Shown here: positions 3,895 to 62,925 of the stretch, one piece after another
Position numbering within the stretch: position 1 is the stretch's first letter
Layout: each line of letters opens with the position of its first letter
Assembly: GCA_000091205.1 (NCBI GenBank)
Contig: AP006498.2
DNA from: Cyanidioschyzon merolae
Lineage: Eukaryota
Length of the DNA: 64,000 nt
Direction: 5' to 3' (one strand)
The notes under the pieces: generated by a model
Seen by the model: only the letters and a program-made list of their open reading frames with translations
Told to the model about the DNA's origin: nothing
Database searches by the model: none
Translations under genes and position numbers: made by a program

Positions 3895-4480
3895 TAGAAA
3901 GAACCGAGTGAGTCCTATAAGCCTTGCGTTCCAGTGGCAAACCTGCTATCTCCAGTCACGAACGCTCTCTATCGACCAGAGCATGACTCCAACTTGCCTC
4001 GCGCTACAGTTGCAAAACTGCTTTCTCCAATTTTAAACGCTTTCTACACTGAAAGGACCGAGTGAGTCCTATAAGCCTTGCGTTCCAGTGGCAAACCTGC
4101 TATCTCCAGTCACGAACGCTCTCTATCGACCAGAGCATGACTCTAACTTGCCTCGCGTTTCAGTGGCAAACCTGCTATCTCCAGTCACGAACGCTCTCTA
4201 TCGACCAGAGCATGACTCCAACTTGCCTCGCGCTACAGTTGCAAAACTGCTTTCTCCAATTTTAAACGCTTTCTACACTGAAAGGACCGAGTGAGTCCTA
4301 TAAGCCTTGCGTTCCAGTGGCAAACCTGCTATCTCCAGTCACGAACGCTCTCTATCGACCACAGCATGTCTCCAACTTGCCTCGCGTTTCAGTGGCAAAC
4401 CTGCTATCTCCAGTCACGAACGCTCTCTATCGACCAGAGCATGACTCCAACTTGCCTCGCGTTTCAGTTGCAACAAGGCT
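3895..4480. repeat. Tandem satellite array of about 7.5 units of 76-78 bp, with two alternating unit variants giving a higher-order period of about 229 bp.
   Basis: Unit U1 is ttccagtggcaaacctgctatctccagtcacgaacgctctctatcgaccagagcatgactccaacttgcctcgcg. It alternates with a diverged unit U2 (ctacagttgcaaaactgctttctccaattttaaacgctttctacactgaaaggaccgagtgagtcctataagccttgcg). The array ends about 115 bp upstream of the SUV3-like gene. Confidence 0.9.
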
Positions 4481-12369: not shown

Positions 12370-12795
12370 CGCCGCGCAGAGGTGCACCTATGCCCTGGCA
12401 AGGCGTGGGAATGTCTGTACTAGCATGTCGCTAAATTTTGTGCCGCGCAGAGGTGCTCCTATGCCCTGGCAAGGCGTGGGAATGTATGTACAAGCATGTC
12501 GCTAAATTTTGTGCCGCGCAGAGGTGCTCCTATGCCCTGGCAAAGCGTGGGAATGTCTGTACAAGCATGTCGCTAAATTTTGTGCCGCGCAGAGGTGCTC
12601 CTATGCCCTGGCAAGGCGTGGGAATGTCTGTACAAGCATGTCGCTAAATTTTGTGCCGCGCAGAGGTGCTCCTATGCCCTGGCAAGGCGTGGGAAGTCTG
12701 TACAAGCATGTCGCTAAATTTTGTGCCGCGCAGAGGTGCTCCTATGCCCTGGCAAGGCGTGGGAATGTCTGTACAAGCATGTCGCTAAATTTTGT
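12370..12795. repeat. Tandem array of six 71-bp units.
   Basis: The unit is tgccgcgcagaggtgctcctatgccctggcaaggcgtgggaatgtctgtacaagcatgtcgctaaattttg. The array lies about 270 bp upstream of the FKBP-TPR gene, and each unit contains an AAAUUUUG tract. Confidence 0.9.
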
Positions 12796-16675: not shown

Positions 16676-16696
16676 TTCGCGAAGGATTCGGAAGCT
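16676..16696. promoter_or_regulatory. Candidate heat-shock-element-like sequence upstream of HSP70.
   Basis: The sequence ttcgcGAAggaTTCggAAGc has alternating GAA/TTC units about 265-285 bp upstream of the HSP70 ATG. One spacer is 3 nt rather than the canonical 2 nt, so the match is imperfect. It coincides with the terminus of Fanzor copy A. Confidence 0.2.
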
Positions 16697-16699
16697 TTG

Positions 16700-16940
16700 C
16701 CGCGAAAAACGCCAGCGGCGTACAGTAGTGGCAGCGACCGCGCCTTAGACAAATCGTTCTCAGCTGACGTGCAGACGCCTCCCAGCCTTTCTCGACCGGC
16801 CACCTACTACTGCTTCCAACTTCTTCTCATATAGTTCGACTTTGAGGGGTTGTCCAACAAAGTTCTCTCTTGTCTATTCTGGAGATCTGTTCTCCAGCAC
16901 CGCACATCTCCGTATATTGCTAGGGGCATGAAAGTCACGA
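16700..16940 (-). ncRNA. Candidate guide-RNA (fRNA/omega-RNA) scaffold at the 3' end of Fanzor copy A.
   Basis: A roughly 230-nt stretch runs from the RuvC-III codons through the stop codon to the element terminus. It is conserved at nucleotide level in copies A, B, C and D, including past the stop where nothing is coding. It contains complementary segments (cagtagtaggtggc ... gccactactg). This placement matches where TnpB and Fanzor guide RNAs are encoded. No RNA evidence is available from sequence alone. Confidence 0.35.
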
Positions 16941-18274
16941 TTCACACACTCCATACGGTTCTTGCCATCATTGGTTGTACTTACTAACGCAGGCAATCCT
17001 CGAACGTTCGCCCTCCTTTCCATTTGCTCCTCTGTTAGCGGTCCGTACTTTGCGATTTCCTCAGGGCACCGCTGGCACTTGTCTATCTCGACCGTCTGAA
17101 GTGTACAACCCAGCTCGTGGTGTGTATAGGACGTTCGGAACTCATCTACAGGTATCGTGACGAGACGCCTTCCACACTCCTTGTACGTTCTTGTTGTTGG
17201 AGCTGGTATGCACCCCTTTTGGGTCTTCCATCGCCCTGCTCCATACGCTACGACGAGCCTTTGACTCTGGTCCCCGTTGAGCGCACGCAACTGATTGAAA
17301 AAGTTGGCAAACGCCCGCTGCCTCCCACAGTGTAGATTCATACGCAGACGGGCCCACCGAGGCTTTGTATATTCCTTCCACAGCGCATCCCAATGGGCAA
17401 CACGAACTTCCATGAATTTCCGAAAAGCTCGAAAGTCCGCTCCTCGGCTCGTCACCTCGCTCATAGCTTCCAGGTGCTCTTTCATTCCTGAATTCCACGT
17501 TTCGATTTTCTTCGTCGCATTTATGACACCGGATTCTCGATAGAATCTCGCTCTCGAGAACGTCAACAGACGGATGTCTTTCTGACGTAAGTTGCCGTAA
17601 GTACCATCTTCCGCCCGCTTCGGTGCTGCGATGGTTATGGTATTTGTGCTTCCGGGGTCCGTGCCAACGACAAAGTCGATATCCTGCACTTTCTGCTTCT
17701 CAGAACCCGCCTTCTTGTTCTCTTCATTCTTTACCGCGCCAACGACAAGGTCGTTATGCTCCACCTCCTGCATCGCAGGATCCGCCGTCTTCTTATCTTC
17801 ATCCTTCGTCACGTCAACGACAAGGTCGTTATCCTCCACCTCCTGAATCGCACGTTCCTCCTCTTTGTTTTCTTCATCCCTCGTCACGGGCGAAGTCAAA
17901 GGCGGAACTGGCCGATCTGTCTTCAACCGCCGATCGTGTACACAAAAGGCTACCCCATCGGTTTCGATCTTCCCAGTGAATACATTTTGCTTGCTCACTT
18001 TGGGACGCTTGGAATCGGAGATACGCTTCCAGTGGGTCTCCCGGTTTTCGCCGGTGAAATCCTTCCTGCTAACACTGAACTTCGGTCCGATCTCCCTCAT
18101 GATGCCGTAAAGGACGCCGGAGTCGATACTCACGAAGTATGACTTGATATTGGACAATGGAACCACGCCGGAGCGCTTCCCCACTAGGACAGCCTTCCGT
18201 CTCTCCCACTCTTCATTTGTCTCTTCACTCAGCTTCATCTCCGCCTTGCGTTCGAGCTCTCGGTCCAGAAACAC
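16874..18274 (-). CDS. Fanzor/TnpB-like RuvC nuclease, RuvC-containing C-terminal portion of copy A.
   Basis: Motifs: RuvC-I-like [17 protein letters not shown]; RuvC-II-like [22 protein letters not shown]; a zinc-finger remnant KCQRCPEE; RuvC-III-like [16 protein letters not shown] (canonical NRDFNAAINIRR in sister copies). Upstream of RuvC-I there are about 25-aa acidic repeats ([25 protein letters not shown]). Confidence 0.8.
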
Positions 18275-18308
18275 AAAGTACCGTAGGACGAGGCGATAGT
18301 ATCGTTCC

Positions 18309-18947
18309 TTATCTTTTTTTCAACTCTGATATCTTTTCTGTTTGATTCGCCAACCCCAGTACCGCACGGTGCTCTTGTACAGTCGCCCGGATCACAGAAG
18401 CTTCATTCGCGCTCTCGTTTGACGCCTTCTTCTCGACAAATTCGACCTCATCTTCATGCTGTCGATCTTTCGTGATGCCATTGATAGTCGCCCATTTTCC
18501 TTTGCGAGAGATGCCCGGGCGGAGTGCAACCGCGGCGCGGATCACGAAACGTTCGAGGTTCGTTGTCAAACGGCTCGTCAGGTTCGTGAGGTACTTCATC
18601 GCCCCGTGGTCGTAAATATCCGCGCCACCCCTGTATCGGGTACGCTCGAAGCGGAATGCCGCGAAGTTTTCGTGGAGGGCATGCACTAGCACATTTTCCC
18701 TCCACGTTCCTGCTGTACAAAGCATCAGGTAGAGAAAAATCGTCTTGTCGAAAACCTCGTCCGGAATCTCGACCGATTCCATGTGCGTCACGTCGAGATA
18801 CATCTCCCTCGCCAGATGCATCAGTCCTGACGAAGCCTTTATAATACTCATGGAGTACGACTCAACACGGTTTCTAGTTGCCTCCCGTAACTTCTCCACC
18901 CACGCATTCTTGATATGTTTAAGAAGACAGGCTTTCACCACCGTCAC
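18309..18947 (-). CDS. N-terminal portion of the same Fanzor gene (copy A). It is out of frame with the downstream part because of a +1 shift in an A7 tract.
   Basis: In copy C the homologous sequence is one continuous frame (ORF 60843..61577 spans both parts), so the break in A and B is a +1 indel in a poly-A tract. The listed start is a GTG and there is no in-frame ATG. An NLS-like basic segment (RKKNKKQ...RKRQRRRRGR) lies in another frame further upstream. The true N-terminus is unresolved and could reflect an intron, a frameshift or a sequencing error. Confidence 0.55.
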   Translation of the reverse strand: MTVVKACLLKHIKNAWVEKLREATRNRVESYSMSIIKASSGLMHLAREMYLDVTHMESVEIPDEVFDKTIFLYLMLCTAGTWRENVLVHALHENFAAFRFERTRYRGGADIYDHGAMKYLTNLTSRLTTNLERFVIRAAVALRPGISRKGKWATINGITKDRQHEDEVEFVEKKASNESANEASVIRATVQEHRAVLGLANQTEKISELKKR

Positions 18948-19266
18948 GTAGGACTCTTGTTTTTCGTGCAGCTTCTGACGTGGGCTCTCCCTCTTCTGCG
19001 TCTTTGTCTTTTCCTGTTACTCTCCGCCGGGCACTGTTTTTTGTTTTTTTTTCTGGCAGCCGGCGACACCTGCCTTCCAGGATCCTCCACTTGCTTTTCC
19101 AGAAATTTCCTTTTTTTCGAAAAAGAACGCGCTTTGAACGCTTCTGTTATAAACTGCGAAGAATCAACCGAATACACTCATTTGAGCGTTGAAACACGAC
19201 TGAGATGAAGTAATATATTTCGCTACGATTCCAATGCAAATACATGTTTTACGTTAAAACAACAAG

Positions 19267-19955
19267 TCAACGAATGGTCAGGATCGCGTTTCCCTTCAAC
19301 GGCGAGATGCGCGTCGTACCTCATGCCTGCCGGTTATGGAGGTGCGCATCTCGACCGCACTATATGCAGCAAAGAACAGGACTAGCTACTGACTAGCAAT
19401 GAGATGACCATTTCTTTCCCACTCTACAGTAAACGTTAAAAGGGCAAATGTTGCCATATCGTCGGAAGCTTACCTTCCAGGCGAAAGGTCCAGCGAGCCG
19501 GACGAGTCTCCGGGGGTTCGTGCTTCATGGCTTCCCCTTCGCCACCCCAGTGCCAGGTGCTTTAGTGATATCTGACCAACTCATCCCCGAAGCGGTTTAT
19601 TCCGGCATTAAGGGTGCTCAGGCAGCGTCTGGGCGTCGCCCTGGTCGCAGCGCATTCGGTGGTACGCCTACGCTGTTCTGTCCCTGTGCAGCATCCGCTC
19701 CAGCGGTACAAGCGCTGCGGCGGGTGCTCACCGCAGGCTCGGCGCACGAAAGAACGCACAAATCGACCAATCTAGCGGAAAGGGAGTCTAAGTAATGGAA
19801 CCTGGAGGCAGGGTGCACCATGATGGGCGCTTTCCCGAAAGCCGATATCCATCCCGCAATCCGTGATCCACGGTCAACGAATAGGTTTTCTCAGACCAGA
19901 AAAAGAACAAGACACGACGCACATCTCGCCGTTGAAGGGAAACGCGATCCTGATC
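19267..19955. repeat. MITE-like segment bounded by a 41-bp inverted-repeat pair. It encloses an R3 copy.
   Basis: ggtcaggatcgcgtttcccttcaacggcgagatgcgcgtcg at 19267-19307 is reverse-complemented at 19915-19955. The same pair occurs in the duplicate at 32415 and 33060. A single arm is present at 60089-60131 beside copy C. Confidence 0.45.
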
Positions 19956-20079
19956 ATGAACGTGTCGCTCTAACGGACAAGACGTGTTAGGGTTGAAGGG
20001 GCAGCAAGGTCTAGTCTTTCAATGCATTCGTGTTCCACTAGCCTCGTAGAGTATTCAAGTGGTTTTTCGCGGTTAACAG

Positions 20080-20583
20080 CAGATGCGTTCCAAGTGCGTT
20101 CGTTCTCAAAAAAAATAGAATGCAATGGTATGGACGTGAAAGTCGAGGATACCGGAGGACCGTCATTGCCGAGTTCGACAAGCAAAATGAGGAAATCCTC
20201 TTCCCGCCGACCACCTATCCAAGAAGAACAACGGGTGACGACAACGAAGACGATGACGATGACGACGATGCGATATAGGCGAGAAAAGGTGTTTGCTCAC
20301 CGGTACGTTTACGAAACTGTGGTGGCACAGAGAGCACGAGTTCGAGGCGTCTTCGCAAAGCGAGGTTCCACCATCGGCCATAAATGCAAGGAGTTCGTCG
20401 ACCGAGACCCCAACGTCGCCATCATGATCAGATAATATGCAGAGCGAAAGACTTTACCCGAGGAACTGACGCGATCTGACTTGCGGGGCAGTCTCTCAGG
20501 GTCTCCGTACACAACCAGAAGCTGAAGCCGACAGCAGGGCCCGGTCCAGCACGGCAGGGAGGCGTCTGCGGGTAGATATCCAT
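20080..20583 (+). mobile_element. Short non-autonomous Fanzor-derived element (family 2, F2a, about 500 bp).
   Basis: It has a Fanzor-type 5' terminus (gcgttccaagtgcgttcgttctcaaaaaaaata...gtcgaggataccggaggacc) joined to the 3' region, which encodes a RuvC-III remnant (KEFVDRDPNVAIMI) and a conserved tail ending gggtagatatccatg. The internal coding region is deleted. Confidence 0.6.
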
Positions 20584-22577
20584 GTATACGACATGGTCGT
20601 GGGACGTTTTTGTTCCACTGACAGGTGCGTTCGAGTTACATAGAACTGAACAGATCCACGGACAAAGACGTATGCACTAATATTTCGGCTTCTTTAAACG
20701 ACGCTGGTCTCTCCTTTCTCTCCGGCGCTGTTCATAGCAGTCGCACGATATTGGCGGTGGTGGTGTTCAGGCCCCGATTCCATAGCTGCCGACTCTTGTC
20801 TAGGCATTCCATGCACTGCCAAAAGTTGCCATCTTCGCTTCGCTTGCCATGTGCACCTTCTCTCCACTCTGTTGCGGTGCGCCCGTCGCAGCGTTGCCGC
20901 TTGGCTGTGGTCTGGCGGTCACATGCCACCAGCATACTTCGTCATCTGACGGCTAGTCGCTGACACGTGAACGCTCGCGTCGACGCTCCGTAACTGTGTG
21001 TGGCGGGTCCAGAAGCCTCACCTCAGTGCCCTGCTCCGTTCTCGCACCAGCTGCCGTAACCTACGCTCACGGGCTTCTGCTGGGCGATCGCCTCGGCGAG
21101 AGCGCTCCCCGCAGCACACGCCTGCGCATGCTGCTCCCTTCTCTAGACGACTCGTCGAAGGCGATGCTCTCCAGACAGGAACAGGTACCGCAACGAACCT
21201 CCCAGGCCGGCGTGCACGTCGTGAACTCTCGATCTGTCTTCGCTCGCTTCGCGCAAAGCAGTGACGCACACTCTACTCAAAGTCATCGCAGCGATGAGTA
21301 AAGCCCGGGTCCAAGACCCCTTTCCATGCGCAGAAAAGAGACGGGCGCCTCTGAGCGCATGTTCCGGGAACTGCACCATACTGCCAATGAGTGCCGCTCC
21401 GTCGATAGCCCCACATAGAGGTGGCATTGCCTCTCAAGCGAAACTGCCTGTTTGCAGTGATAAGCTGCGTGACGTTTCAGCGAGAGTCTGTGAACGAGTC
21501 GTCACGGCCTCAACCCAGGTATTTTTCGTCGTTCATCCAGCGACGTGAAGTGCTGCACCCGAGTGTCGCCTTGAAACAGAGGCATCGAACCTTGGCGCAT
21601 GCGAGTGATTCGTGCACGCTACACTTAGGAATATGAGAAGCGCAGAGGCTTGTACACATGTCGTGGAAGAAGATGCCTTTTATGTGATGAATCCTTGCTC
21701 GTGGGTGCCGCGCATCATTCAAATGACGGTGACGTGACGAATGCGAGCGGCAGAGGGTCTACAAAGCAACTCCGGATGTGCGACCCTGATTCCTACAGCT
21801 ACTTCCCAGTCCATGAGCCCGCACTGTTGCACTTTGCATCTACAGGCTGGAGATCTAAAACAATTGCGGAAAAATCTCAAGCCAGGAACTGCGCGAGCAG
21901 CTCAGTTCTCCACTTTAATCTGACTTAAGAATAGGATGCCATGGGTGCCTACAACTGGGACTCCGCGCGAACACGCTGCAGAAGCGTTGTTGCAGCCTCT
22001 GGACTGCAGGGAGCGCCACGCGGCGAACCAGGCCCTTTCCGCATACGACAACCCGACTCGCCAGGCTGTGACCTGGCCATACCTCAGATGGTGCTTCAGC
22101 GAACCTTGGTTCCGGACGGCCGACTTCATACGCTGGACATAGGAGCATTGCGTACTCTTTTGATCCTTCGAGAAAACATGTAATCGTTATGTGGGAACGA
22201 GCAACGCCCCTCACGGAGCATGCCACATTCGTTCTCCTGTTGCTCAACTGCCCCCCAGCCGCGGTGTCTGACGAGACGTTTGCTCTCGGGGACACCCGAC
22301 AAGTTAAATACGAACGGATTCGGGCATCCCAGGCCCGCTGATGCTATTCGAGAAGGCATACGCCTGTCGTAAATGAAACGCAATGTGTACCTCTATGGCG
22401 CACCCTCTGACGAGCAGATGCCAACACACGCGCGCTCGAAGACTGCTCCCGAAAGAAGGCCTTCCAGGACACGTAAGAGCTCTTCAATAGCATAGTGCTT
22501 GCAGCTGGTTCTGCTCAGTCCGCTCAGAGCGACGCTAGACCTCACACTGATTCCGTAGGAGCTTGCAACACAGTGCA

Positions 22578-24170: not shown

Positions 24171-24386
24171 TCAATAGGCTCCCGAGAGAAGCCTGGGGAG
24201 CTGCAAAAGATATCTGCAGTGGACCGTCGTGCGCTTCCAGGTTGCCCGACTTGGGCGAGTGCTCCACTGGAACGAACAGCAGCGAGAGCGCTCGATGACG
24301 CCCGGCGGCAGCGCAGCTGCAGATCGCACACTCGTCCATTTGCGGGTGTAGCTGCAATCGCTAAATTGTCAAGTGCAAGCGGCACC

Positions 24387-24975
24387 AGCAACTCGAGAAC
24401 GATGGGTTTCTCTCTCTACGGTAAGTGCTGAAAGGGGGAAGAGGTTTTCCGTATTTTCGAAACTTTATCCTATAGATGGAAAAGCAGCAACTCGAGAACG
24501 ATGGGTTTCCATCTCCACGGTAAGCGCTGAAAGGGGAAGAGGTATTCCGTATTTTCGAAACTCTACCCCATAGATGGAAAAGCAGCAACTCGAGAGCGTT
24601 TGCTTTCCCTCTCTACGGTAAGTGCTGAAAGGGGGAAGAGGTTTTCCGTATTTTCGAAACTTTATCCTATAGATGGAAAAGCAGCAACTCGAGAACGATG
24701 GGTTTCCATCTCCACGGTAAGCGCTGAAAGGGGGAAGAGGTATTCCGTATTTTCGAAACTCTACCCCATAGATGGAAAAGCAGCAACTCGAGAGCGTTTG
24801 CTTTCCCTCTCTACGGTAAGCGCTGAAAGGGGGAAGAGGTATTCCGTATTTTCGAAACTCTACCCCATAGATGGAAAACCAGCAACTCGAGAACGATGGG
24901 TTTCCATCTCCACGGTAAGCGCTGAAAGGGGGAAGAGGTTTTCCGTATTTTCGAAACTTTACCCTATAGATGGCA
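24387..24975. repeat. Tandem array of six 98-99-bp units, with two alternating variants giving a period of about 197 bp.
   Basis: The unit is agcaactcgagaacgatgggtttccatctccacggtaagcgctgaaagggggaagaggtattccgtattttcgaaactctaccccatagatggaaa. Each unit carries a GGTAAG splice-donor-like site and a downstream GUAUUUUCG tract. Confidence 0.9.
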
Positions 24976-26442
24976 GATCTCGCGTGCTCGACGTGTCTAC
25001 CGGGCTTGTGCTCCGTGCGACTCTGCAGTGGCGGGTGCTCTTGCGCGACCTGAGTAGCATACCCGCTCCTAGGCCCAGAATAAAGTGCGTTGGGGACGAG
25101 TGGCTGTGCTGTTGCCACTGCACTCGCCAGGGCAGAGACGCGCGGACCTACAACACCGGAGCATTGTCGGCCTTGCGGGACCTTTCGTACAGAAGCTAGG
25201 TTTGCGACTGTAAGGAAACCTTCACCACTTTTCAGCTCTTACGGTGGAGTGGGAACGAAGTCATGCAAAGTAGTTTGTTCGTGTTTCATTTCTGTTCTAT
25301 TACCCTAATAGTTGATGTCCAGTGAAACGGAACGCATGCCCGGGTTGCGCTGCCGGCGCGGCAATTGTTGATACAATAACATCGATGAATCGAACCAGAA
25401 CGCTTGGGATGCGTACGTTCGTGCTGTACGCAATCAGGAAAGTGACCAGCATTCCCTAGAGACGTCCATGCGCCCCGGAAGCTGCAGCCCGTTTCCCAGC
25501 CTGCACCGGGAGTTTGACTGAGCGAACGACCCTGCAATTGCCGAGCCTACCGCAAGCGCTTGCTGTGGCGTTGCAGGCGCCCAACTAGTCGCCTTGTGGA
25601 GACAAAAAGCGTCTGCGTCGTATCCCAGCGGGAATCTCATCGAGGCTCAGGGCCATGCCCGCCTGGCACACGCCCCTTCGTTGTCCGTGCGAATTTCGGG
25701 CCGCATGGAGGTCGTGCTGCGGCGCGAACTCGCGGCATCGTCGTATCTGCTCGCTGAAGAGCGACCGCCTGCGGTCGCTGCTTCCTCCGCATACCGTGCA
25801 ACTGCATTCTTTCTGCCAACGGGGGTGACGTGCGCCAGTTCGGCATCGCCCGCGTGCTGCAAATTTGAAACCGTCACCGGCAAAGGATTTCTGTCCGCCT
25901 AAGTAGCTTCTCTAGGCACAGGCGTCTCCATCGGGAGCTGGGTACACGTGCTGGGTTCCGGATGAGGGTGCATACCCAGTCTCGCCACAATGCCCGCTCG
26001 CTGGACGTATCCGCGTGACGCTGTGTGCCTCGTTTGCCTCCAGGCCGGGTTTCTGGTAGTTGAGGACACCGCGCAGCCTGCTCATATGCAAGCCAGCCGA
26101 TCCTGCGTGCATTTTCGTGATCGAGTGCTCGCGTGCGTGCTATCAGTAGCCCGTCTGCGTGCCATCCGATTCCACGAGGAATCTTCAGAACAAATGCGCG
26201 CACCTACAGCATCAGTGGCAACGAGTAAGCACGAGTACCGCAGACCTCGAGTGCAGACTGCTGTATGCCTTGCATGCAGCGCGTCGCGCTGTCGACGCTG
26301 CGGCAGGGCGCCTTGTGCGCAAATCGGCTGCGACGTCTGTACTCGCGTCGAGACGCCTTTCCAGTAGGCAGCGTTCGGGAAAACTGCAGCCTTGCCAATA
26401 GAACTGAACGTTGTTGCACGGAATAGGAGCTGTGGAACATGC

Positions 26443-29212: not shown

Positions 29213-29793
29213 TCCTTTGACGCGATTCTTCTCGATATAATTGAAGCGTTGTCCAGTAACCTGAAAGATCGGGCGCTGCCAGAAAACTCGTCCGCAACAA
29301 GGCACGAAATGCACGCCCTGTCGAAGCGCAACAGCACACCGGTACAGTGTTAGCGGCCTTTCACCGCAGAAACTCGCACTGATGGTGCTTTACGGAAGCT
29401 TCTCTTCGTCGCGCCTTGAGCTCTGTTCCCGGTCGAAGCGAGGCTCCCCGGGTCTGCAAAGCTCTAATAAAGCCACGTGGGCAAAGAGTCGTGCACTGCA
29501 GCAGCTGCAGCACGAACCAGATATGCTGCACCCGTTCAGAGCAAGTGCAGTGCCTCGTCTCTACTGCCGATAACGGATCCGGAGACCGACGACGGTAGAG
29601 AAACCAAACGCCTTCACAGAGTCGAACGATGCCGACTGTGTACAGTAGTGGCGGTGAACGCGCCCTAGACTTAAAGTCGCCAATTGACGTGCAGACGCCT
29701 CCCAGCCTTTCTCGACCGGCCACCTACTACTGCTTCCAACTTCTTCTCATATAGTTCGACTTTGAGAGGTTGTCCAACAAAGTTCTCTCTTGT

Positions 29794-31419
29794 CTATTCT
29801 GGAGATCTGTTCTCCAGCACCGCACATCTCCGTATATTGCTAGGGGCATGAAAGTCACGATTCACAAACTCCATACGGTTCTTGCCATCATTGGTTGTAC
29901 TTACTAACGCAGGCAATCCTCGAACGTTCGCCCTCCTTTCCATTTGCTCCTCTGTTAGCGGTCCGTACTTTGCGATTTCCTCAGGGCACCGCTGGCACTT
30001 TTCCATCTCGACCGTCTGAAGTGTACAACCCAGCTCGTGGTGTGTATAGGACGTTCGGAACTCATCTACAGATATCGTGACGAGACGCCTTCCACACTCC
30101 TTGTACGTTCGTGTTGTTGGAGCTGGTATGCACCCCTTTTGGGTCTTCCATCGCCCTGCTCCATACGCTACGACGAGCCTTTGAGTCTGGTCCCCGTTGA
30201 GCGCACGCAACTGATTGAAAAAGTTGGCAAACGCCCGCTGCCTCCCACAGTGTAGATTCATACGCAGACGGGCCCACCGAGGCTTTGTATATTCCTTCCA
30301 CAGCGCATCCCAATGGGCAACACGAACTTCCATGAATTTCCGAAAAGCTCGAAAGTCCGCTCCTCGGCTCGTCACCTCGCTCATAGCTTCCAGGTGCTCT
30401 TTCATTCCTGAATTCCACGTTTCGATTTTCTTCGTCGCATTTATGACACCGGATTCTCGATAGAATCTCGCTCTCGAGAACGTCAACAGACGGATGTCTT
30501 TCTGACGTAAGTTGCCGTAAGTACCATCTTCCGCCCGCTTCGGTGCTGCGATGGTTATGGTATTTGTGCTTCCGGGGTCCGTGCCAACGACAAAGTCGAT
30601 ATCCTGCACTTTCTGCTTCTCAGAACCCGCCTTCTTGTTCTCTTCATTCTTTACCGCGCCAACGACAAGGTCGTTATGCTCCACCTCCTGCATCGCAGGA
30701 TCCGCCGCCTTCTTATCTTCATCCTTCGTCACGTCAACGACAAGGTCGTTATGCTCCACCTCCTGCATCGCAGGATCCGCCTTCTTCTCATTTTCATCCT
30801 TCGTTACGCCAACGACAAGGTCGTTATGCTCCACCTCCTGCATCGCAGGATCCGCCGCCTTCTTATCTTCATCCTTCGTTACGCCAACGACAAGGTCGTT
30901 ATGCTCCACCTCCTGCATCGCAGGATCCGCCGTCTTCTTATCTTCATCCTTCGTCACGTCAACGACAAGGTCGTTATCCTCCACCTCCTGAATCGCACGT
31001 TCCTCCTCTTTGTTTTCTTCATCCCTCGTCACGGGCGAAGTCAAAGGCGGAACTGGCCGATCTGTCTTCAACCGCCGATCGTGTACACAAAAGGCTACCC
31101 CATCGGTTTCGATCTTCCCAGTGAATACATTTTGCTTGCTCACTTTGGGACGCTTGGAATCGGAGATACGCTTCCAGTGGGTCTCCCGGTTTTCGCCGGT
31201 GAAATCCTTCCTGCTAACACTGAACTTCGGTCCGATCTCCCTCATGATGCCGTAAAGGACGCCGGAGTCGATACTCACGAAGTATGACTTGATATTGGAC
31301 AATGGAACCACGCCGGAGCGCTTCCCCACTAGGACAGCCTTCCGTCTCTCCCACTCTTCATTTGTCTCTTCACTCAGCTTCATCTCCGCCTTGCGTTCGA
31401 GCTCTCGGTCCAGAAACAC
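29794..31419 (-). CDS. Fanzor/TnpB-like RuvC nuclease, C-terminal portion of copy B (541 aa with the expanded acidic repeat).
   Basis: It has the same RuvC-I, RuvC-II, zinc-finger and RuvC-III motifs as copy A, and five to six copies of [25 protein letters not shown]. Confidence 0.8.
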
Positions 31420-31453
31420 AAAGTACCGTAGGACGAGGCGATAGTATCGTTCC

Positions 31454-32092
31454 TTATCTTTTTTTCAACTCTGATATCTTTTCTGTTTGATTCGCCAACC
31501 CCAGTACCGCACGGTACTCTTGTACAGCCGCACGGATCACAGAAGCTTCATTCGCGCTCTCGTTTGACGCCTTCTTCTCGACAAATTCGGCCTCATCTTC
31601 ATGCTGTCGATCTTTCGTGATGCCATTGATAGTCGCCCATTTTCCTTTGCGAGAGATGCCCGGGCGGAGTGCAACCGCGGCGCGGATCACGAAACGTTCG
31701 AGGTTCGTTGTCAAACGGCTCGTCAGGTTCGTGAGGTACTTCATCGCCCCATAGTCGTAAATATCCGCGCCACCCCTGTATCGGGTACCCTCGAAGCGGA
31801 ATGCCGCGAAGTTTTCGTGGAGGGCATGCACTAGCACATTTTCCCTCCACGTTCCTGCTGTACAAAGCATCAGGTAGAGAAAAATCGTCTTGTCGAAAAC
31901 CTCGTCCGGAATCTCGACCGATTCCATGTGCGTCACGTCGAGATACATCTCCCTCGCCAGATGCATCAGTCCTGACGATGCCTTTATAATACTCATGGAG
32001 TACGACTCAACACGGTTTCTAGTTGCCTCCCGTAACTTCTCCACCCACGCATTCTTGATATGTTTAAGAAGACAGGCTTTCACCACCGTCAC
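31454..32092 (-). CDS. N-terminal portion of the Fanzor gene in copy B, with the same A7-tract +1 frameshift as copy A.
   Basis: It is near-identical to 18309..18947. Confidence 0.55.
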   Translation of the reverse strand: MTVVKACLLKHIKNAWVEKLREATRNRVESYSMSIIKASSGLMHLAREMYLDVTHMESVEIPDEVFDKTIFLYLMLCTAGTWRENVLVHALHENFAAFRFEGTRYRGGADIYDYGAMKYLTNLTSRLTTNLERFVIRAAVALRPGISRKGKWATINGITKDRQHEDEAEFVEKKASNESANEASVIRAAVQEYRAVLGLANQTEKISELKKR

Positions 32093-33224
32093 GTAGGACT
32101 CTTGTTTTTCGTGCAGCTTCTGACGTGGGCTCTCCCTCTTCTGCGTCTTTGTCTTTTCCTGTTACTCTCCGCCGGGCACTGTTTTTTGTTTTTTTTTCTG
32201 GCAGCCGGCGACACCTGCCTTCCAGGATCCTCCGCTTGCTTTTCCAGAAATTTCCTTTTTTCGAAAAAGAACACGCTTTGAACGCTTCTGTTATAAACTG
32301 CGAAAAATCAACCGAATACACTCATTTGAGCGTTGAAACACGACTGAGATGAAATAATATATTTCGCTACGATTCCAATGCAAATACACGTTTTACGTTA
32401 AAACAACAAGTCAACGAATGGTCAGGATTGCGTTTCCCTTCAACGGCGAGATGCGCGTCGTACCTCATGCCTGCCGGTAATGGAGGTGTGCATCTCGACC
32501 GCACTATATGCAGCAAAGAACAGGACTAGCTACTGACTAGCAATGAGATGACCATTTCTTTCCCACTCTACAGTAAACGTTAAAAGGGCAAATGTTGCCA
32601 GATCGTCGAAAGCTTACCTTCCAGGCGAAAGGTCCAGCGAGCCGGACGAGTCTCCGGGGGTTCGTGCTTCATGGCTTCCCCTTCGCCACCCCAGTGCCAG
32701 GTGCTCTAGTGATATCTGACCAACTCATCCCCGAAGCGGTTTATTCCGGCATTAAGGGTGCTCAGGCAGCGTCTGGGCGTCGCCCTGGTCGCAGCGCATT
32801 CGGTGGTACGCCTACGCTGTCCTGTCCCTGTGCAGCATCCGCTCCAGCGGTACAAGCGCTGCGGCGGGTGCTCACCGCAGGCTCGGCGCACGAAAGAACG
32901 CACAAATCGACCAGTCTAGCGGAAAGGGAGTCTAAGTAATGGAACCTGGAAGCAGGGTGCACCATGACGGGCGCTTTCCCGAAAGCCGATATCCATCCCG
33001 CAATCCGTGATCCACGGTCGATGGATAGGTTTTCTCAGACCAGAAAAAGAACAAGACACGACGCACATCTCGCCGTTGAAGGGAAACGCGATCCTGATCA
33101 TGAACGTGTCGCTCTAACGGACAAGACGTGTTAGGGTTGAAGTGGCAGCAAGGTCTAGTCTTTCAATGCATTCGTGTTCCACTAGCCTCGTAGAGTATTC
33201 AAGTGGTTTTTCGCGGTTAACAGC

Positions 33225-33728
33225 AGATGCGTTCCAAGTGCGTTCGTTCTCAAAAAAAATAGAATGCAATGGTATGGACGTGAAAGTCGAGGATACCGGA
33301 GGACCGTCATTGCCGAGTTCGACAAGCAAAATGAGGAAATCCTCTTCCCGCCGACCACCTATCCAAGAAGAACAACGGGTGACGACAACGAAGACGATGA
33401 CGATGACGACGATGCGATATAGGCGAGAAAAGGTGTTTGCGCAACCGGTACGTTTACGAAACTGTGGTGGCACAGAGAGCACGAGTTCGAGGCGTCTTCG
33501 CAAAGCGAGGTTCCACCATCGGCCATAAATGCAAGGAGTTCGTCGACCGAGACCCCAACGTCGCCATCATGATCAGATAATATGCAGAGCGAAAGACTTT
33601 ACCCGAGGAACTGACGCGATCTGACTTGCGGGGCAGTCTCTCAGGGTCTCCGTACACAACCAGAAGCTGAAGCCGACAGCAGGGCCCGGTCCAGCACGGC
33701 AGGGAGGCGTCTGCGGGTAGATATCCAT
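33225..33728 (+). mobile_element. Short non-autonomous Fanzor-derived element (F2b). It is the duplicate of F2a.
   Basis: It has the same sequence as 20080-20583 within the duplicated block. Confidence 0.6.
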
Positions 33729-35220
33729 GTATACGACATGGTCGTGGGACGTTTTTGTTCCACTGACAGGTGCGTTCGAGTTACATAGAACTGAACAGAT
33801 CCACGGACAAAGACGTATGCACTAATATTTCGGCTTCTTTAAACGACGCTGGTCTCTCCTTTCTCTCCGGCGCTGTTCATAGCAGTCGCACGATATTGGC
33901 GGTGGTGGTGTTCAGGCCCCGATTCCATAGCTGCCGACTCTTGTCTAGGCATTCCATGCACTGCCAAAAGTTGCCATCTTCGCTTCGCTTGCCATGTGCA
34001 CCTTCTCTCCACTCTGTTGCGGTGCGCCCGTCGCAGCGTTGCCGCTTGGCTGTGGTCTGGCGGTCACATGCCACCAGCATACTTCGTCATCTGACGGCTA
34101 GTCGCTGACACGTGAACGCTCGCGTCGACGCTCCGTAACTGTGTGTGGCGGGTCCAGAAGCCTCACCTCAGTGCCCTGCTCCGTTCTCGCACCAGCTGCC
34201 GTAACCTACGCTCACGGGCTTCTGCTGGGCGATCGCCTCGGCGAGAGCGCTCCCCGCAGCACACGCCTGCGCATGCTGCTCCCTTCTCTAGACGACTCGT
34301 CGAAGGCGATGCTCTCCAGACAGGAACAGGTACCGCAACGAACCTCCCAGGCCGGCGTGCACGTCGTGAACTCTCGATCTGTCTTCGCTCGCTTCGCGCA
34401 AAGCAGTGACGCACACTCTACTCAAAGTCATCGCAGCGATGAGTAAAGCCCGGGTCCAAGACCCCTTTCCATGCGCAGAGAAGAGACGGGCGCCTCTGAG
34501 CGCATGTTCCGGGAACTGCACCATACTGCCAATGAGTGCCGCTCCGTCGATAGCCCCACATAGAGGTGCCATTGCCTCTCAAGCGAAACTGCCTGTTCGC
34601 AGTGATAAGCTGCGTGACGTTTCAGCGAGAGTCTGTGAACGAGTCGTCACGGCCTCAACCCAGGTATTTTTCGTCGTTCATCCAGCGACGTGAAGTGCTG
34701 CACCCGAGTGTCGTCTTGAAGCAGAGGCATCGAACCTTGGCGCATGCGAGTGATTCGTGCACGCTACACTTAGGAATATGAGAAGCGCAGAGGCTTGTAC
34801 ACATGTCGTGGAAGAAGATGCCTTTTATGTGATGAATCCTTGCTCGTGGGTGCCGCGCATCATTCAAATGACGGTGACGTGACGAATGCGAGCGGCAGAG
34901 GGTCTACAAAGCAACTCCGGATGTGCGACCCTGATTCCTACAGCTACTTCCCAGTCCATGAGCCCGCACTGTTGCACTTTGCATCTACAGGCTGGAGATC
35001 TAAAACAATTGCGGAAAAATCTCAAGCCAGGAACTGCGCGAGCAGCTCTGTATTGCATTGATTCTAACACTGGCGCTGCATCAGGTGCCGCCGCTGTTTC
35101 TCTGCAAAGCTCTGCCGTGCGCTCTCTCTCGCTTTCTCTCTCTACAACCTCCTCTCCGCGCCCTTGGCCAAAACACGTGAACAGAGTGCTGGATGTCGAG
35201 CATAACGCCCCGTTGCGCAG

Positions 35221-35724: not shown

Positions 35725-35726
35725 CA

Positions 35727-36500
35727 CCAACGCCGTTCGAAAGTCGAACGACGCCAACGGTGTACAATAGTGGCGAGTGACCCGCCCTAGAGGAGACGTC
35801 GCCAGTTGATGTGCGGACGCCATCCAATCTTTCTCGACCGGCCACGTACAACTGCTTCCAACTTTTTCTCATATAATTCCACGTTGGGAGGTTCTCCCAC
35901 AAAATTCTCTCTTGTCTACTTTGGAGGTCTATTCTCCAGCACCGCACATCTCCTTATATCGATAGCTGCGTTAAGGTCTCGGTTCACAAACTCGATACGT
36001 TTCTTGCCATCATTGGTTGTACTTACTAATGCAAGTAGCCGTCGAACTTTTGCCCTCCTTTCCATTTGCTCGTCTGTCAGCGGTCCGTACTTTTTTATAT
36101 CCTCAGGGCTCCACTGACACTTTTACATTTCCACTCTCTGAGGTGTGCATCCGAGTTCATGGTGTGTACACGATGTTCGGAACTCATCTACAGGTATCGT
36201 GACGAAACGCCTTGCGCACTCCTTTTACGTTCTTGTCGATGGAGCTGGTGTAGTCCCTTTTTGGGTCTTCCATCGGCCTGCTCCGTACGCTACTACGAGC
36301 CTCTGACTTTCATCCTCCTTCAGGGCACTCAGCTGATTGAAGAAGTTTGCGAACGCCCGCTGCCTCCCACCGTATAGATGCATACGCTGACGAGCCCACC
36401 GGGGCTTTGTATACCCTTTCTACAGCTCCTCGTTATGAGCAGCGCGAGTATTCATGAACTCCAGAAAAGCCTGAAAGTCCGCTCAACGGCTCGTCACGTT
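35727..36500 (-). mobile_element. Truncated family-1 Fanzor element (copy D), 3' part only. Its terminus abuts the cytochrome b5 start codon.
   Basis: It aligns with the 3' roughly 770 bp of copies A and B, covering the tail, the stop and the RuvC-III/zinc-finger region. It ends in gccactattgtaca followed by cgttggcgtcgttcgactttcgaacggcg. Similarity to A and B stops near 36500. Confidence 0.65.
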
Positions 36501-36539
36501 ACCGATAGATGAGTAACGAACGACTTTCGTCCACCATGA

Positions 36540-36900
36540 GTTGGGACGTACACTTCAGAAGGTAGAGATGGAAAAAGCCAGCGGGGCGCTCCGGAGATGA
36601 AAGAGTACGGAGAGCTGCCAGAGCAGGAAATTGCAGTGAGGGCACGAGGCCGTGGACTCCTTGCATTCATAAGTTCCACCAGCGGCGGAGCATGCAAGGA
36701 GTTCGTGAACCGAGACTTTAACGCAGCTATTAATATCAGAAGATGTGCAGTGCCGGAGACGAGACCCGAAGAGCTGACGCGATCTAATTTTGTGACACAG
36801 CCTCTCAGGCTCCAAGTGTACAGAGAGAAGCTGAAACCGATAGCCGAGGGCAGGTCGAAAAAGACTGGGAGATGTCTGCGCGATAGTAGATACACACAAA
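36540..36900 (+). mobile_element. 3' fragment of a plus-oriented Fanzor-derived element (E) with a degenerate zinc finger. It is joined tail-out to copy D.
   Basis: It encodes KSQRGAPEMKEYGELPEQ (compare [19 protein letters not shown]), then VNRDFNAAINIRRCAVPE, then an F2-type tail ending gatagtagatacac. Confidence 0.55.
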
Positions 36901-38601: not shown

Positions 38602-38685
38602 TGACGGCGACGCGATTCGAACGCGCGTGAGCTGTCGCTCATTGGAACCTTACTCCAACGCCTTGGACCACTCGGCCACGCCGTC
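38602..38685 (-). tRNA. tRNA-Leu (anticodon AAG), a type II tRNA with a long variable arm.
   Basis: The minus-strand sequence is GACGGCGTGGCCGAGTGGTCCAAGGCGTTGGAGTAAGGTTCCAATGAGCGACAGCTCACGCGCGTTCGAATCGCGTCGCCGTCA. It folds with a 7-bp acceptor stem, a GCC/GGC D-stem, a 5-bp anticodon stem with loop GUAAGGU, a variable-arm hairpin TGAGC-GACA-GCTCA, a GTTCGAATC T-loop and discriminator A73. Confidence 0.8.
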
Positions 38686-42910: not shown

Positions 42911-43179
42911 TGTACCAAGAACAAAAAGCTGCGCTGCTTTGTAGTACAAGGCGAAATGCGGTCAAGAAGCCTGGAGACAATTCCGGGTGCGGGCTCTCCG
43001 CGAGCACAAGCCGACGTTCTGGCTCTCTGAATGGACAGGGTCCAGTACGGGATGGTGCCGGCTTCACTAGATGCCGATAACCATGATGCATTCGAGGAGC
43101 TCTGCTTCTAGTCTTCCAGGTAAATTATGCTGGATTCTGCAGGTTCGTATCATCAAAAGCTTTTTTACGGTTTATAGTG

Positions 43180-43669
43180 AATGCATTCGAAGTGCGTTCA
43201 TTCGAAGTGTAAAAAATCCATAGGAAATATATGGACATGGAGGTCGAGGATCCTGGTGGACCCCCATCGCCGTGCTCGACAAAGGAAACAAAAAAAGTCC
43301 TCTTCTCGCTGGCCATGGATCGAAGAAGAGCGCATGACGGAGAAGAACAGGGGGAATAGGCGAGAAAAGGTGTTTGCCGGACGGTACGTTTACAAAACTC
43401 TAGTGGTACAGGGGGCACGAGTTCCAGCTATCCTTGCGTTGATGAGTTCCACCATCGGCGGCAATAGAAGTATGGAGCTCGTGAACCGCGACTTCAAAGC
43501 TGCCATCAATATCAGACGATACGCGTTGCTAAAGACGAGACCCGCGGATCTGACGCGATCCAACTTTGCGGGACAGCCTCGCAGGGCCTAACTTTACAAG
43601 CAGACGCTAACGTCGATAGCATGAGGCCCGTCTAAAAAGGCCGGGTGGCGTCCGCAGGTGGATATTCGT
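43180..43669 (+). mobile_element. Short non-autonomous Fanzor-derived element (F2c).
   Basis: It has a 5' terminus gcattcgaagtgcgttcattcgaagtgtaaaaaat...gtcgaggatcctggtggacc, a 3' region encoding RSMELVNRDFKAAINIRRYALLK, and a tail ending ggtggatattcgt. Confidence 0.6.
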
Positions 43670-53980: not shown

Positions 53981-54119
53981 TTACTCTATGGTCCTGGGAT
54001 ATTTTCTGTTTCACGGATCACATGTATACAGCGACTAGTTCAGATGCCGATCGGCGTCCTGTCCAACGCTAACTACACCAGTTCCAGGATAAAATGTGAC
54101 ATGGAACTATTCGCTCTGT

Positions 54120-60240: not shown

Positions 60241-60249
60241 GACTTTTCG

Positions 60250-62690
60250 CAGTATATAACAGAAGCGTTCAAAGAGCGTTCTTTTTCAAAAAAAATAAAA
60301 ATGAAAAGTTATGAGAAAGCAAGTCGACGATCCTGGAGGCCCAGTGTCGCTGGGTGCCAGACAAAAAAACGAAAAACTGTGCCTAGTCCAGAGGAACAGG
60401 AAAAGGCAAAGAAGCAAGGGCAGGAAGACCGACGTCAGTGGCTGCAAGAAAGACGACAGTACGACGAGACGGTGGGGAAAGCCTGTTTTCTTAAACATAT
60501 CAAGGATCCGCATAGAGAAAAATCGCGAGAGGTCATTAGGAACCGTGTCGATTCGTACTCCAGGAGGAGTATAAAGTCGTCCTCAGGACTAATGCATCTG
60601 GTGAAGGGGATGTACGAAGACGTGATGGACATGGAAACAGTCGAGGTTCCGGAAGAATTCTTCGACAAGACCTATATTCGTCACCTGATGCTTGGTAGAG
60701 CGGAAGCGCAGAGGGAAAAAGAGCGGATACACGTCCTCACGAAAACCATCCTTTTTACAGCTTCGAGGGTGCTCGAAACAAGGGTGACCGGGATATTCAC
60801 GACAATGGGGCGATGAAGTAGATCACGAACCTGAAGAACCATTTGACAGTGAACCTCGAACGTTTCATGAAACGCACCGTGTTTGCACTCTACTCGGGCC
60901 TATCTCGCAATGGAAAATGGGCGATTATCAATGGCATCACGAAAGATCGCAAGCGTGAAGATGAAGTCGAATTCGTCGACAAGAAGGCATCAAACGAGAG
61001 CACGAATGAAGCTTCTGTAATCCGTGCGGCTATAGAAGAGCATCGTGCAGTCCTGGAGCTGGCGAATCCAACAGACAAGATATCAGAGTTGAAAGAAGCT
61101 AAGGAAAGATACTATCGCCTCGTCCTGCGCTATTTCGTGTTTCTGGACCAAGAACTCGAACGCAAGGCAGAGGTGAAGCAGCGTGAGGAAAGCAATGAAG
61201 AGTGGGAGAGACGGAAGGCTTTCCTACTGGGGAAGCGCCTCAACGTGGTTCCAATGTGCAACATCAAGTCACATTTTGTGACTATCCACTCCAGAATCCT
61301 TCACGGCATCATGGAGGAGATTAGTCCGGAGTTCGATGTTAGCAGGGAGGAATTCTCCGGTGAAAACCGGGAGACGTACTGGAAGAATATCTTCGATTTC
61401 AAACATCTCAAAGTGAGCAAGCAAAAGGTATTCAATGGGATGATCGAAACCGATGGGGTAGCCTTGTGTGTACACTATCGGCGGTTGAAAAGAGATCGTC
61501 CAGTTCCACCCTCGGCTTCGCCCGTGACGAAGGATGAAGAAAAGAAGGAGGCGGATCCTGCGACGCAGGAGGTATAGGATAAAGACCTTGTCGTTGACGT
61601 GACGAAGGATGAAGAAAGGGAGGAGGCGGATCCTGCGACACAGGAGGTGGAGGATAACGACCTTGTCGTTGACGCGGTGAAGCATGAAGATGAGAAGGAG
61701 GCGGATCCTGTGATGCAGGAGGTAGATGGGAACGACTTTGTCGTTCGTGCTGACCCCGGAAACACAAATATCGTAATCATCGCAGTATCCAAGCGTGCGG
61801 AAGACGGTACCGACGGTAATTTTCGTCAGAGACATGCGTCTTTTGAGGTTCTCGAAAATGATATATTATCGAGAATCCGGCACAATGAATGCAAGGAAGA
61901 AAATTGAGACATGGAATGCAGGAATGAAGGATCACCTGGAAACTTTGAGCGAGGTGACTAGCCGAGAGGCGGACTTTCAAACTTTTCTGAAATTCATGGA
62001 AGTTCGCGTTGCTCATTGGGATGCGCTGTGGAATGAGTATGCAAAGCCCCGGTGGGCTCGTCTGCGTATGAATTTGTATTTTGGGAAGCAGCGTGCATTC
62101 GCGAACTTTTTCAATGAGCTGAGCACCTTCAAAGAAGATGAAAGTCAGAGGCTCGTAGTGGCGTACGGAGCAGGGCGCTGCGCGCCCAAAAAAGTATATA
62201 CACCAGCTCCAACGACAAGAACGTACAAGGAGAGCGCAAAGCGTTTCTTTACGATACCAATAAGATGAGTTCCGAACATCGTATACACACCATGAACTGG
62301 GGTGTACATTTCAAAGGGTCGAGATGGAAAAGTGCCAGCGGAGCCCTGAGAATATAAAAAAGTACGGAGCGCTGACAGATGAGCAAATGGAAAGGAGAGC
62401 GGAAGTTCGGGACTACTTGCATTCGTAAGTACAATCAATGGCAAGAAACGTATGGAATTTTTGATCCGGGACTTTAACGCCACAATCAATATAACAACAT
62501 GTGCGGTGATGGAGAATAGACCACCAGAGCGAACACGAGAGAACTTTGTTGGACAACCTTTCAAAATGAAACTATATGAGAAAAAGTTGAAACCAGTAGT
62601 AGGTGGCCGGTCGAGAAAGACTCGATGGTGTTTGAACGTCAGTTGGAGACTTCTTGACTAGGGCGGGTTTCTCGCCACTACTGTACACCG
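60250..62690 (+). mobile_element. Fanzor/TnpB-like element, family-1 copy C. It is diverged and degenerate, and lies co-oriented with and immediately upstream of the RNase III-like gene.
   Basis: Its 5' terminus (cagtatataacagaagcgttcaaagagcgttctttttcaaaaaaaata) and 3' tail (...ctagggcgggtttctcgccactactgtaca) match copies A and B. It is about 70-75% similar to A and B by eye. Confidence 0.75.
60301..62661 (+). pseudogene. Fanzor/TnpB-like ORF of copy C, disrupted by in-frame stops and frameshifts.
   Basis: The ORF fragments 60301..60816, 60843..61577, 61599..61907, 61795..62268 and 62452..62661 are collinear with the A and B protein. In-frame stops are present, for example TAG where A has TAC-CTC and TAG where A has GAG. 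The RuvC-III region is kept (IRDFNATINITTCAV). The N-terminal segment and the RuvC-I segment are in one frame here, unlike in A and B. Confidence 0.75.
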
Positions 62691-62925
62691 CTGGCGTCGT
62701 TCGACTTTCGAACGGCGTTTTGCGATGGTTTGATCGTTGCAACGCTCCAGGAGCAAACAAGGCTTGGAAACGTGCACGCTTTTCATGGAAAGAGCGCAGC
62801 GCTGCTTGCAGAGAGAGCCTTTGATGCGGTAGAGGTGCTTGGTGCTCGTCGCTGAGAGTCCGCGAAGCAACTGCACCAAAACTGGCGACGGCAAGGTTTT
62901 ATCTATGTGCATGGTAGTCGCGAAA

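Follow-up and report, generated by a model that had tools for sequence, protein, structure and literature searches.

The window analysed here, a 64,000-nucleotide stretch of Cyanidioschyzon merolae DNA (contig AP006498.2 of assembly GCA_000091205.1), contains at positions 16700-16940 of its minus strand the right-hand end of a decayed transposon copy. This copy (copy A, 16703 to ~19900, minus strand) belongs to a ~3.3-kb element that carries a Fanzor1 gene, and whose architecture matches the published description of the CMe-1A family. In intact copies, the right end consists of a small stem-loop, a conserved box and a terminal hairpin. We consider it rather probable that this CMe-1A-like right end is a short omega-RNA (ωRNA) scaffold, a signal for transposition, or both. 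The structural description of the right end is much firmer than the ωRNA role, which we hold to be about as likely as not.

The only open reading frame (ORF) of the element encodes Fanzor1, a RuvC nuclease of the TnpB/Fanzor type. A family profile that included distant representatives matched PpFz1 of Parasitella (9cf0; E=1.4e-19) and SpuFz1 of Spizellomyces (8gkh; E=4.6e-12), and one distant homologue, P0160, matched SpuFz1 by itself at E=3.9e-4. When the profile was built from close homologues only, SpuFz1 was reached at E=0.45; the window protein by itself had no match in Pfam or PDB, and searches of Pfam, NCBIfam and PDB with the window protein or its close homologues returned nothing useful. 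A useful match thus required that distant representatives be brought into the profile. A preliminary description of the region, made from the DNA letters only, had proposed a TnpB/Fanzor-type ORF, which the profile matches to PpFz1 and SpuFz1 narrow down to Fanzor1. Many close homologues are annotated as PF26935/DUF8286 (the Pfam search of the window protein and of the full-length homologue P0002 did not return PF26935), and the profile searches show the family marked in this way to be Fanzor1. The putative acidic residues of the RuvC site, D484 (RuvC-I), E656 and D725 (RuvC-III), do not vary among 25 sequences of ~30% identity; E656 we take to be the alternative RuvC-II glutamate of the VDE(F/Y)xTS motif. 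Copy A retains the motifs of this triad (GTDPG, VDEFRTS and one of the RD.NAA.NI type), but its ORF is not intact. The N-terminal fragment (18309..18947, minus), which aligns with the N-terminus of P0002 (752 aa), and the C-terminal RuvC fragment (16874..18274, minus) are in different frames, the shift falling between 18309 and 18274; the RuvC fragment ends at a premature TAG (16874-16876). Within the Fanzor ORF, a 75-nt tandem repeat was also observed (17663-17962, 30583-31107 and 61523-61747). It codes for acidic units of 25 aa, the number of which varies among copies and homologues; two overlapping units were found in copy A (17659-17888), several more in copy B and three in copy C.

The premature TAG of copy A (16874..16876, minus), which is common to copies B and D, occupies a codon of the form T-N-G within the motif RPPE-L-TRE. 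In the set of tails used throughout (80 tails from 52 distinct insertion sites, that is, with 52 distinct flanks), the homologous codon was TAG in 16, TTG in 16, TCG in 10, TGG in 10, CTG in nine and CGG in six. This codon varies strongly in its second base only (CTG and CGG apart), while the neighboring codons are >90% conserved; relaxed constraint, recurrent mutation or selection are possible causes of the hypervariability. Beyond it, the consensus frame continues for 43 more codons (…PPE-L-TRENFVGQPLKVELYEKKLEAVVGGRSKKTGRRLHVSWRRFV-stop) to the C-terminus RRLHVSWRRFV and a well-conserved TAG ~14 nt ahead of the box. The corresponding former C-terminal extension of copy A (TRENFVGQPLKVELYEKKLEAVVGGRS.K.GRRLHV... 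in the consensus translation) lies at 16745..16873 (minus), with a TAA (16745-16747) at the site of the consensus stop and an additional in-frame TGA at 16760-16762. The residues L-T-R-E directly past the stop of copy A are part of a motif (RP..L.R) conserved in homologues of ~30% identity and aligned with the C-terminal RPPLFSRE of PpFz1, the alignment crossing the position of the stop. Arg747, which is likewise encoded past this stop, is invariant in the 25 sequences, and in a second, diverged Fanzor family of the window (family 2, see below) this stretch is likewise coding, the differences being synonymous or conservative. Most of what had been described as conserved noncoding sequence past the stop is thus former coding sequence cut off by a secondary TAG, as judged from the consensus frame, family 2 and the PpFz1 alignment.

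Conservation of the tail does not exceed that of the ORF. Variability per column was 0.11-0.15 in the tail and 0.07-0.15 in the ORF, with 0.15-0.24 in the 5′ noncoding part and 0.33-0.49 in the flanks. Upstream of the stop, variability at codon positions 1, 2 and 3 was 0.06, 0.06 and 0.19, a third-position bias that indicates purifying selection during the spread of the family, most copies of which are pseudogenes. The bias fades along the tail: values were 0.12, 0.09 and 0.14 in consensus columns 154-279, where codon periodicity was weak (p=0.03), and ~0.20 at each of the three positions in columns 283-342; periodicity was absent from the last 10 codons. The extension, which is basic, was therefore a weakly constrained protein segment. 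On the minus strand, the order of features is RuvC-III codons, premature TAG, ~43 former codons, a GGCG...CGCC stem-loop, the box of 13-14 nt and, in intact copies, the hairpin.

As the preliminary description had seen, the flagged region can be aligned in four copies (79-95% identity to copy B in our comparison): A (16703-17026, minus), B (29623-29946, minus), D (35729-36068, minus) and C (62384-62720, plus). Copy B extends from 29623 to ~33040 (minus), and copy D (35729-36497, minus) is truncated at its 5′ end. Copy C (59407-62727, plus), a pseudogenised but full-length member (~3.3 kb) of family 1, served as the coordinate reference for the family-1 element; by comparison with it (A 19646-19893 corresponds to C 59648-59407), the left end of copy A lies approximately at 19893..19905 (minus). 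Copies A and B are not independent, because both sit in one duplicated block (16720-21903 = 29640-35048; 5.2-5.4 kb, 98.7% identity). Besides the Fanzor element, this block takes in a short family-2 element and, past the left end, ~1.3 kb of further DNA. On the right-end side, near-identity breaks off exactly at the junction of box and hairpin, beyond which copy A has a class-2-like and copy B a class-1-like hairpin remnant (for the classes, see below). The break may have arisen by gene conversion, by one-ended copying or because the hairpin is fragile.

The 14-mer GCCACTACTGTACA, which the preliminary description had taken for an invariant terminus, occurs four times in the window with ≤1 mismatch (0.22 expected by chance), but it is not invariant across the family, nor is it the terminus. 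It corresponds to a subterminal box, GCCACTACTGTAC(G/A), at 16719..16732 (minus) in copy A. In copies B, C and D, similarity extends ~35-45 nt beyond the 14-mer, which bears out the earlier remark that 20-40 nt outside it are alike between copies, and in every copy of the tail set similarity persists past GCCACTACTGTAC. Conservation collapses only ~40-50 nt beyond the box: flanks are unrelated from ~12 nt after the GGCG that closes the conserved core in the hairpin 3′ arm, with information content at background by about +12 nt. Of the two explanations that had been offered for this similarity, a true terminus further out proved correct, the box being followed by a hairpin and then by divergent flanks. 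The other, a shared target sequence, was rejected: in 628 kb, each of the 57 hairpins detected comes after a box and none stands without one, so that the hairpin is part of the element and not a repeat already present at the target. The box itself was matched 95 times in the 628 kb, with the coding tail ahead of it in 85 cases. The right end occupies the 14-100 nt after the consensus stop, and the element truly ends at the 3′ foot of the hairpin. At three loci (L041:1809, L039:1716 and L072:903), a partial second box (GCCACTACTCTGC) immediately follows the hairpin foot of one element, which may represent nested or tandem insertion beside the right end of another copy.

The terminal hairpin comprises 41-51 nt and 19-23 bp, its first base being the C after TGTA, and exists in two classes, CACCGYTGGCGTCGTTCGA-CTT-TCGAACGGCGTTGNTGGTG (class 1) and CACCGCTGGCGACAACGTTTTTC-TTTC-GAAAGGCGTTTGTTGTTGGCGGTG (class 2). 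The classes differ in their 5′ arm but hardly in their 3′ arm, with which either 5′ arm can pair; the core of the 3′ arm, GAA(A/C)GGCG, is conserved. Among 32 class-1 copies, the covariation score was 0.167 compared with 0.129 in shuffles (reached by 0 of 500) and 0.066-0.112 in slid controls; the number of pair types was 34 instead of 26.8 (again 0 of 500), and 11 pairs were altered on both sides instead of 5.9 (4 of 500). Folding had a mean z of -2.1 over the 52 independent insertions, and the sense strand was the more stable one in 48 of 52 copies (-16.1 versus -10.4 kcal/mol for antisense; p=3.5e-9). As RNA, z ranged from -4.95 to -7.55 for sense and from -2.5 to -3.0 for antisense, and 21% of the hairpin pairs are G·U. 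Together, these results support the terminal hairpin as a real structure. Within the window, intact class-1 hairpins follow the box in copy D (box 35761-35774; box and hairpin 35725..35774, minus; CACCGTTGGCGTCGTTCGA-CTT-TCGAACGGCGTTGGTG, -21.6 kcal/mol, z=-2.47) and in copy C (box 62674-62687, hairpin 62686-62727; together 62674..62727, plus; z=-3.07, as RNA -22.0 kcal/mol and z=-4.95). Copy B has a degenerate class-1 remnant next to its box (box 29639-29652; together 29601..29652, minus; z=+0.20), and in copy A the remnant at 16678..16720 (minus) is degenerate and does not fold (z=+0.27; as DNA +0.42, as RNA +1.11). Since copy A has lost the terminal hairpin, is frameshifted in its ORF and carries a premature stop, it is very unlikely to give rise to a functional guide RNA.

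It might also be that tail and hairpin have no function, and that their likeness in all these copies comes solely from recent common descent and homogenisation by gene conversion. Variability of the tail equal to that of the ORF, copies ~80% alike throughout, their mosaic structure, which indicates gene conversion, and the majority of pseudogenes would all fit. Still, we regard this as highly improbable, given the excess over shuffles of hairpin pairs altered on both sides, the pairing of two different 5′ arms with the same 3′ arm, the strong strand asymmetry of the hairpin, and the third-position bias of the upstream ORF, a mark of purifying selection.

Several results weigh against the right end acting as RNA scaffold downstream of an extended coding sequence. 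Since the hairpin also folds as sense-strand DNA (z -3.75 to -4.49), a role in transposition at the DNA level alone would account for it just as well, and its outer stem shows no copy-specific compensation (arms within versus between copies, p=0.18). The copies are mosaics, with linkage that decays within ~100 nt everywhere in the tail (Mantel tests), which weakens a tree-based reading of covariation. Hairpin class is not associated with upstream sequence; taken by itself, this might have spoken for a target repeat, but linkage is lost over such distances throughout the tail. The scan of 628 kb for the box found no ORF-less "ghost" right ends of family 1. The longest intact ORF sampled (L026, 778 codons) ends only eight codons past PPE, which makes the true C-terminus of active copies uncertain; PpFz1 ends at the equivalent point, and the C-terminal extension may be dispensable as both proteins stop near there. 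The small stem-loop, GGCG-loop-(C/T)GCC at 16730..16744 (minus) in copy A and a candidate for stem-loop 1 (SL1), has outer 4 bp that are nearly invariant and a highly polymorphic loop, but no covariation: pairing between its two halves is no better within a copy than across copies (p=0.75). Folding of the whole tail (z -1.6 to -2.2) did not stand out from an upstream coding control (-1.95), and four further candidate helices in the coding part were no better than shuffles. The same holds for the long-range helix between cagtagtaggtggc and gccactactg, the covariation of which was 0.089, compared with 0.085 in shuffles (reached by 62 of 500).

This helix had been central to the model of the preliminary description, a noncoding scaffold of ~230 nt from the RuvC-III codons to GCCACTACTGTACA with the guide directly after it. 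The position does fit known Fanzor ωRNAs, and a consensus 13-bp helix is possible: it appears in the minimum free energy fold of consensus positions 200-342, and 88.8% of its cells are paired compared with 33-52% in slid controls (though 88.7% in shuffles). However, covariation in the proposed pairing does not exceed that of shuffles. Over the 52 independent tails, RNAalifold retained only 3 bp, all of them the GGC/GCC pairs of the small stem-loop, and family 2 lacks the pairing partner and conserves the stretch as protein. Moreover, conservation and structure persist beyond the box in every copy, which excludes a copy-specific guide at that place. The 230-nt model is thereby largely refuted, and little probability remains for it in our assessment. 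A check for covariation was hence positive for the terminal hairpin, which lies outside the element as it had been drawn, and negative for the helices of the coding part and for the small stem-loop. Rfam had no match on 62200-62800 at E up to 1, and on the whole window it returned only a tRNA gene (38602-38685, minus).

The left end of the family-1 element directly abuts a flanking T-run, which varies from 4 to 9 nt and is always present, and starts with CGA-TGACAAAACGTTTAC (also read as CGA-TGACAAAACGTTTACATTGACC). Terminal inverted repeats (TIRs) were not found, the motifs of the right end being without an inverted copy, and target site duplications (TSDs) were not detected at full-length copies either, where the longest shared substring was 6.0 nt for the two ends of the same copy and 6.3 for ends of different copies. 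At 5′-truncated copies, there was no TSD signal in what is a weak test, the chaining of copies being broken at the internal 75-nt repeats. The two ends are related by one candidate asymmetric terminal inverted repeat (ATIR): GACAAAACGTTT, 5 nt from the left end, agrees in 11 of 12 positions with AGACGTTTTGTC read in reverse complement. The latter lies 69-80 nt inside the right end, and 15 of 2000 shuffles reached such a match (p about 0.008). Genes for RepHel or for any other transposase were detected neither in the window nor adjoining the copies. A TnpA of the IS200/IS605 type was considered and rejected, the ORFs of the 5′ region being short, of low complexity and not TnpA-like; the element codes for Fanzor1 only. 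What resembled an invertible segment of 440 nt in the 5′ region proved to be a short 5′ unit inserted separately beside truncated copies. Such solo copies of the first ~600 nt were seen at 554-1159 in the window and at two further loci (L017:1344-1995 and L037:1440-2041); they end in a T-rich tract, lack ORF and right end, and are often placed head-to-head with 5′-truncated Fanzor copies.

Ends of this kind are also what a Helitron2-like element would have. In that case, box and hairpin would be no more than cis-acting end signals of a nonautonomous, rolling-circle element of the HUH type with Fanzor1 as cargo, and the hairpin would work on the transferred DNA strand, without any role as guide RNA. 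The absence of both TIRs and TSDs would be accounted for, as would the ATIR, a 3′ hairpin that is strand-specific and stable as DNA too, and ragged 5′ ends (copy D is truncated, and the A/B block over-runs the left end by ~2 kb). The comparison is with Helitron2 of Chlamydomonas, which carries Fanzor1 (CRe-1/2/3; CrFNuc-1) and inserts after TTTT (PMC3627910, PMC10530073): shared features are the 3′ subterminal hairpin, a 5′ junction after a T-run, full-length copies without TSD, 5′ truncations with intact 3′ ends, and a 3′ end that coincides with the fRNA (Fanzor RNA) region, a candidate one in the present element; the candidate ATIR would be a further likeness. On the other hand, no RepHel partner was seen in the window or beside the copies, the gene is without introns, truncated copies showed no TSDs (in the weak test mentioned above), the 3′ end is not of the CTRR type, and the 3′ ATIR lies ~70 nt from the end rather than 20-30 nt. 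Furthermore, a G·U share of 21% suits RNA better than DNA, and the RNA z is ~1.5-fold stronger than the DNA z. We therefore consider the Helitron2-like reading possible but doubtful in its exclusive form; since the 3′ end of the Chlamydomonas element is an fRNA region too, ωRNA and Helitron2 readings are in fact compatible.

Spread without any transposase is a further, rather remote prospect. One-ended, break-induced copying that starts from the box/hairpin junction and runs leftwards over a variable distance would explain fixed 3′ and ragged 5′ ends, the absence of TIRs and TSDs, and the 98.7% identity of copies A and B from the box to ~2 kb past the left end despite their different hairpin classes. 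Fanzor and its ωRNA might themselves, as a complex, make the break that starts the process.

Fanzor ωRNAs derive from the 3′ or right transposon end, where they can overlap the final codons of the nuclease gene (PMC10432273, PMC10530073). The flagged region had been recognized as the place where a Fanzor guide RNA is encoded, which agrees with these characterized Fanzor1 systems. The ωRNAs of SpuFz1 and PpFz1 consist of a 7-bp SL1, one more stem-loop and the guide (PMC10432273, PMC11423790), and an Fz1 scaffold may comprise no more than SL1 and a 4-bp stem-loop 2 (SL2; PMC11423790). In the reading that we favor, the 3′ end of the Fanzor transcript would be processed in intact copies so as to release the last 80-100 nt (small stem-loop, box and hairpin) as a short ωRNA scaffold, and ~20 nt of unique flank past the hairpin would serve as guide; in copy C, the putative guide would start after ~62727. 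The sequence directly 3′ of the candidate scaffold is indeed specific to the copy, with 52 distinct flanks among the 80 tails. The T-run at the left end would be a candidate target-adjacent motif (TAM), the other candidate interpretations being a target preference or a part of the element, and the same hairpin would probably double as cis signal for transposition.

Compared with SpuFz1, GtFz1 and PpFz1, which belong to the same protein family (PMC10432273, PMC11423790), the candidate RNA likewise lies at the 3′ or right end, overlapping or abutting the last codons, and its layout is compatible with SL1, one stem-loop and guide, the flank being unique right after the last stem. In contrast, SpuFz1 is located within 33-bp TIRs with TA TSDs, and the red algal element has neither. 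The candidate SL1 has 4-6 bp and no covariation, and the terminal stem of 19-23 bp is far longer than SL2 of PpFz1. IS200/IS605 elements with TnpB also have asymmetric, hairpin-bearing ends with the structure on one strand, no TIRs or TSDs, and an ωRNA that overlaps with both the right end and the 3′ terminus of the nuclease gene. Unlike these, the element described here has no Y1 TnpA, resides in a eukaryotic host, and encodes a protein that groups with Fanzor1 and not with TnpB.

For CMe-1A of C. merolae (Bao and Jurka, 2013), ~150 copies of ~3 kb were reported, ~80% identical to the consensus and without TIRs, the TSDs being undetermined and the classification unknown; its 5′ 635 bp form the short element TE-N2_CMe (PMC3627910). 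The present element likewise has a cyanidiophycean red algal host, a single Fanzor1 ORF, a length of ~3 kb, many copies ~80% alike, no TIRs and no detectable TSDs. Its 5′ ~600-635 bp also exist as a separate element, TE-N2_CMe corresponding to the solo units at 554-1159 and at loci L017 and L037. Terminal hairpin, box, flanking T-run and ATIR were, by contrast, not described for CMe-1A.

The second Fanzor family of the window is represented only by short (~0.4-0.7 kb), internally deleted elements (20022-20621, 33166-33765, 36487-36882, 43153-43665 and 53523-54017). They keep the last RuvC-III codons (…VDRDPNVAIMIR-stop) and the coding tail, and have a different 3′ end without the box and without a hairpin of class 1 or 2. 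Because three of them have the same internal structure, the family-2 elements were probably amplified as nonautonomous units. The genes of the window are intron-free and eukaryotic, among them those for HSP70, SUV3, a BTB-ankyrin protein, cytochrome c1 (with Cyanidium caldarium as closest named relative, 83% identity) and cytochrome b5. Other tandem arrays, unrelated to Fanzor, have periods of ~99, 71 and 75 nt (24333-25024, 12371-12795 and 3921-4453, respectively). The same HSP70 gene with the element adjoining was found on JGI/ENA contigs, one source of which, project Ga0078972, is a Yellowstone metagenome (PMC8986864). All of the 153 close homologous proteins came from JGI/ENA, a scan of Yellowstone hot-spring metagenomes yielded more than 452 element loci, and a protein library clustered at 50% identity contained 1,499 representative proteins at E-values up to 0.001.

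For work on transposon copies in general, the present case is a caution that conservation beyond a stop codon can reflect a premature stop in decayed copies. For the cyanidiophyte elements, the classification of which has been open since 2013, the right end is now defined, which provides a candidate short ωRNA (stem-loop, box and a hairpin of 41-51 nt), a candidate TAM in the form of the T-run, and an exact predicted start of the guide. An abundant Pfam family, DUF8286 (PF26935; 1,499 representative clusters, >450 Yellowstone loci), is linked to Fanzor1 by the profile matches. The hot, acidic springs in which the host grows would make an intact member of the family an obvious candidate for an RNA-guided nuclease of eukaryotic origin that tolerates heat.

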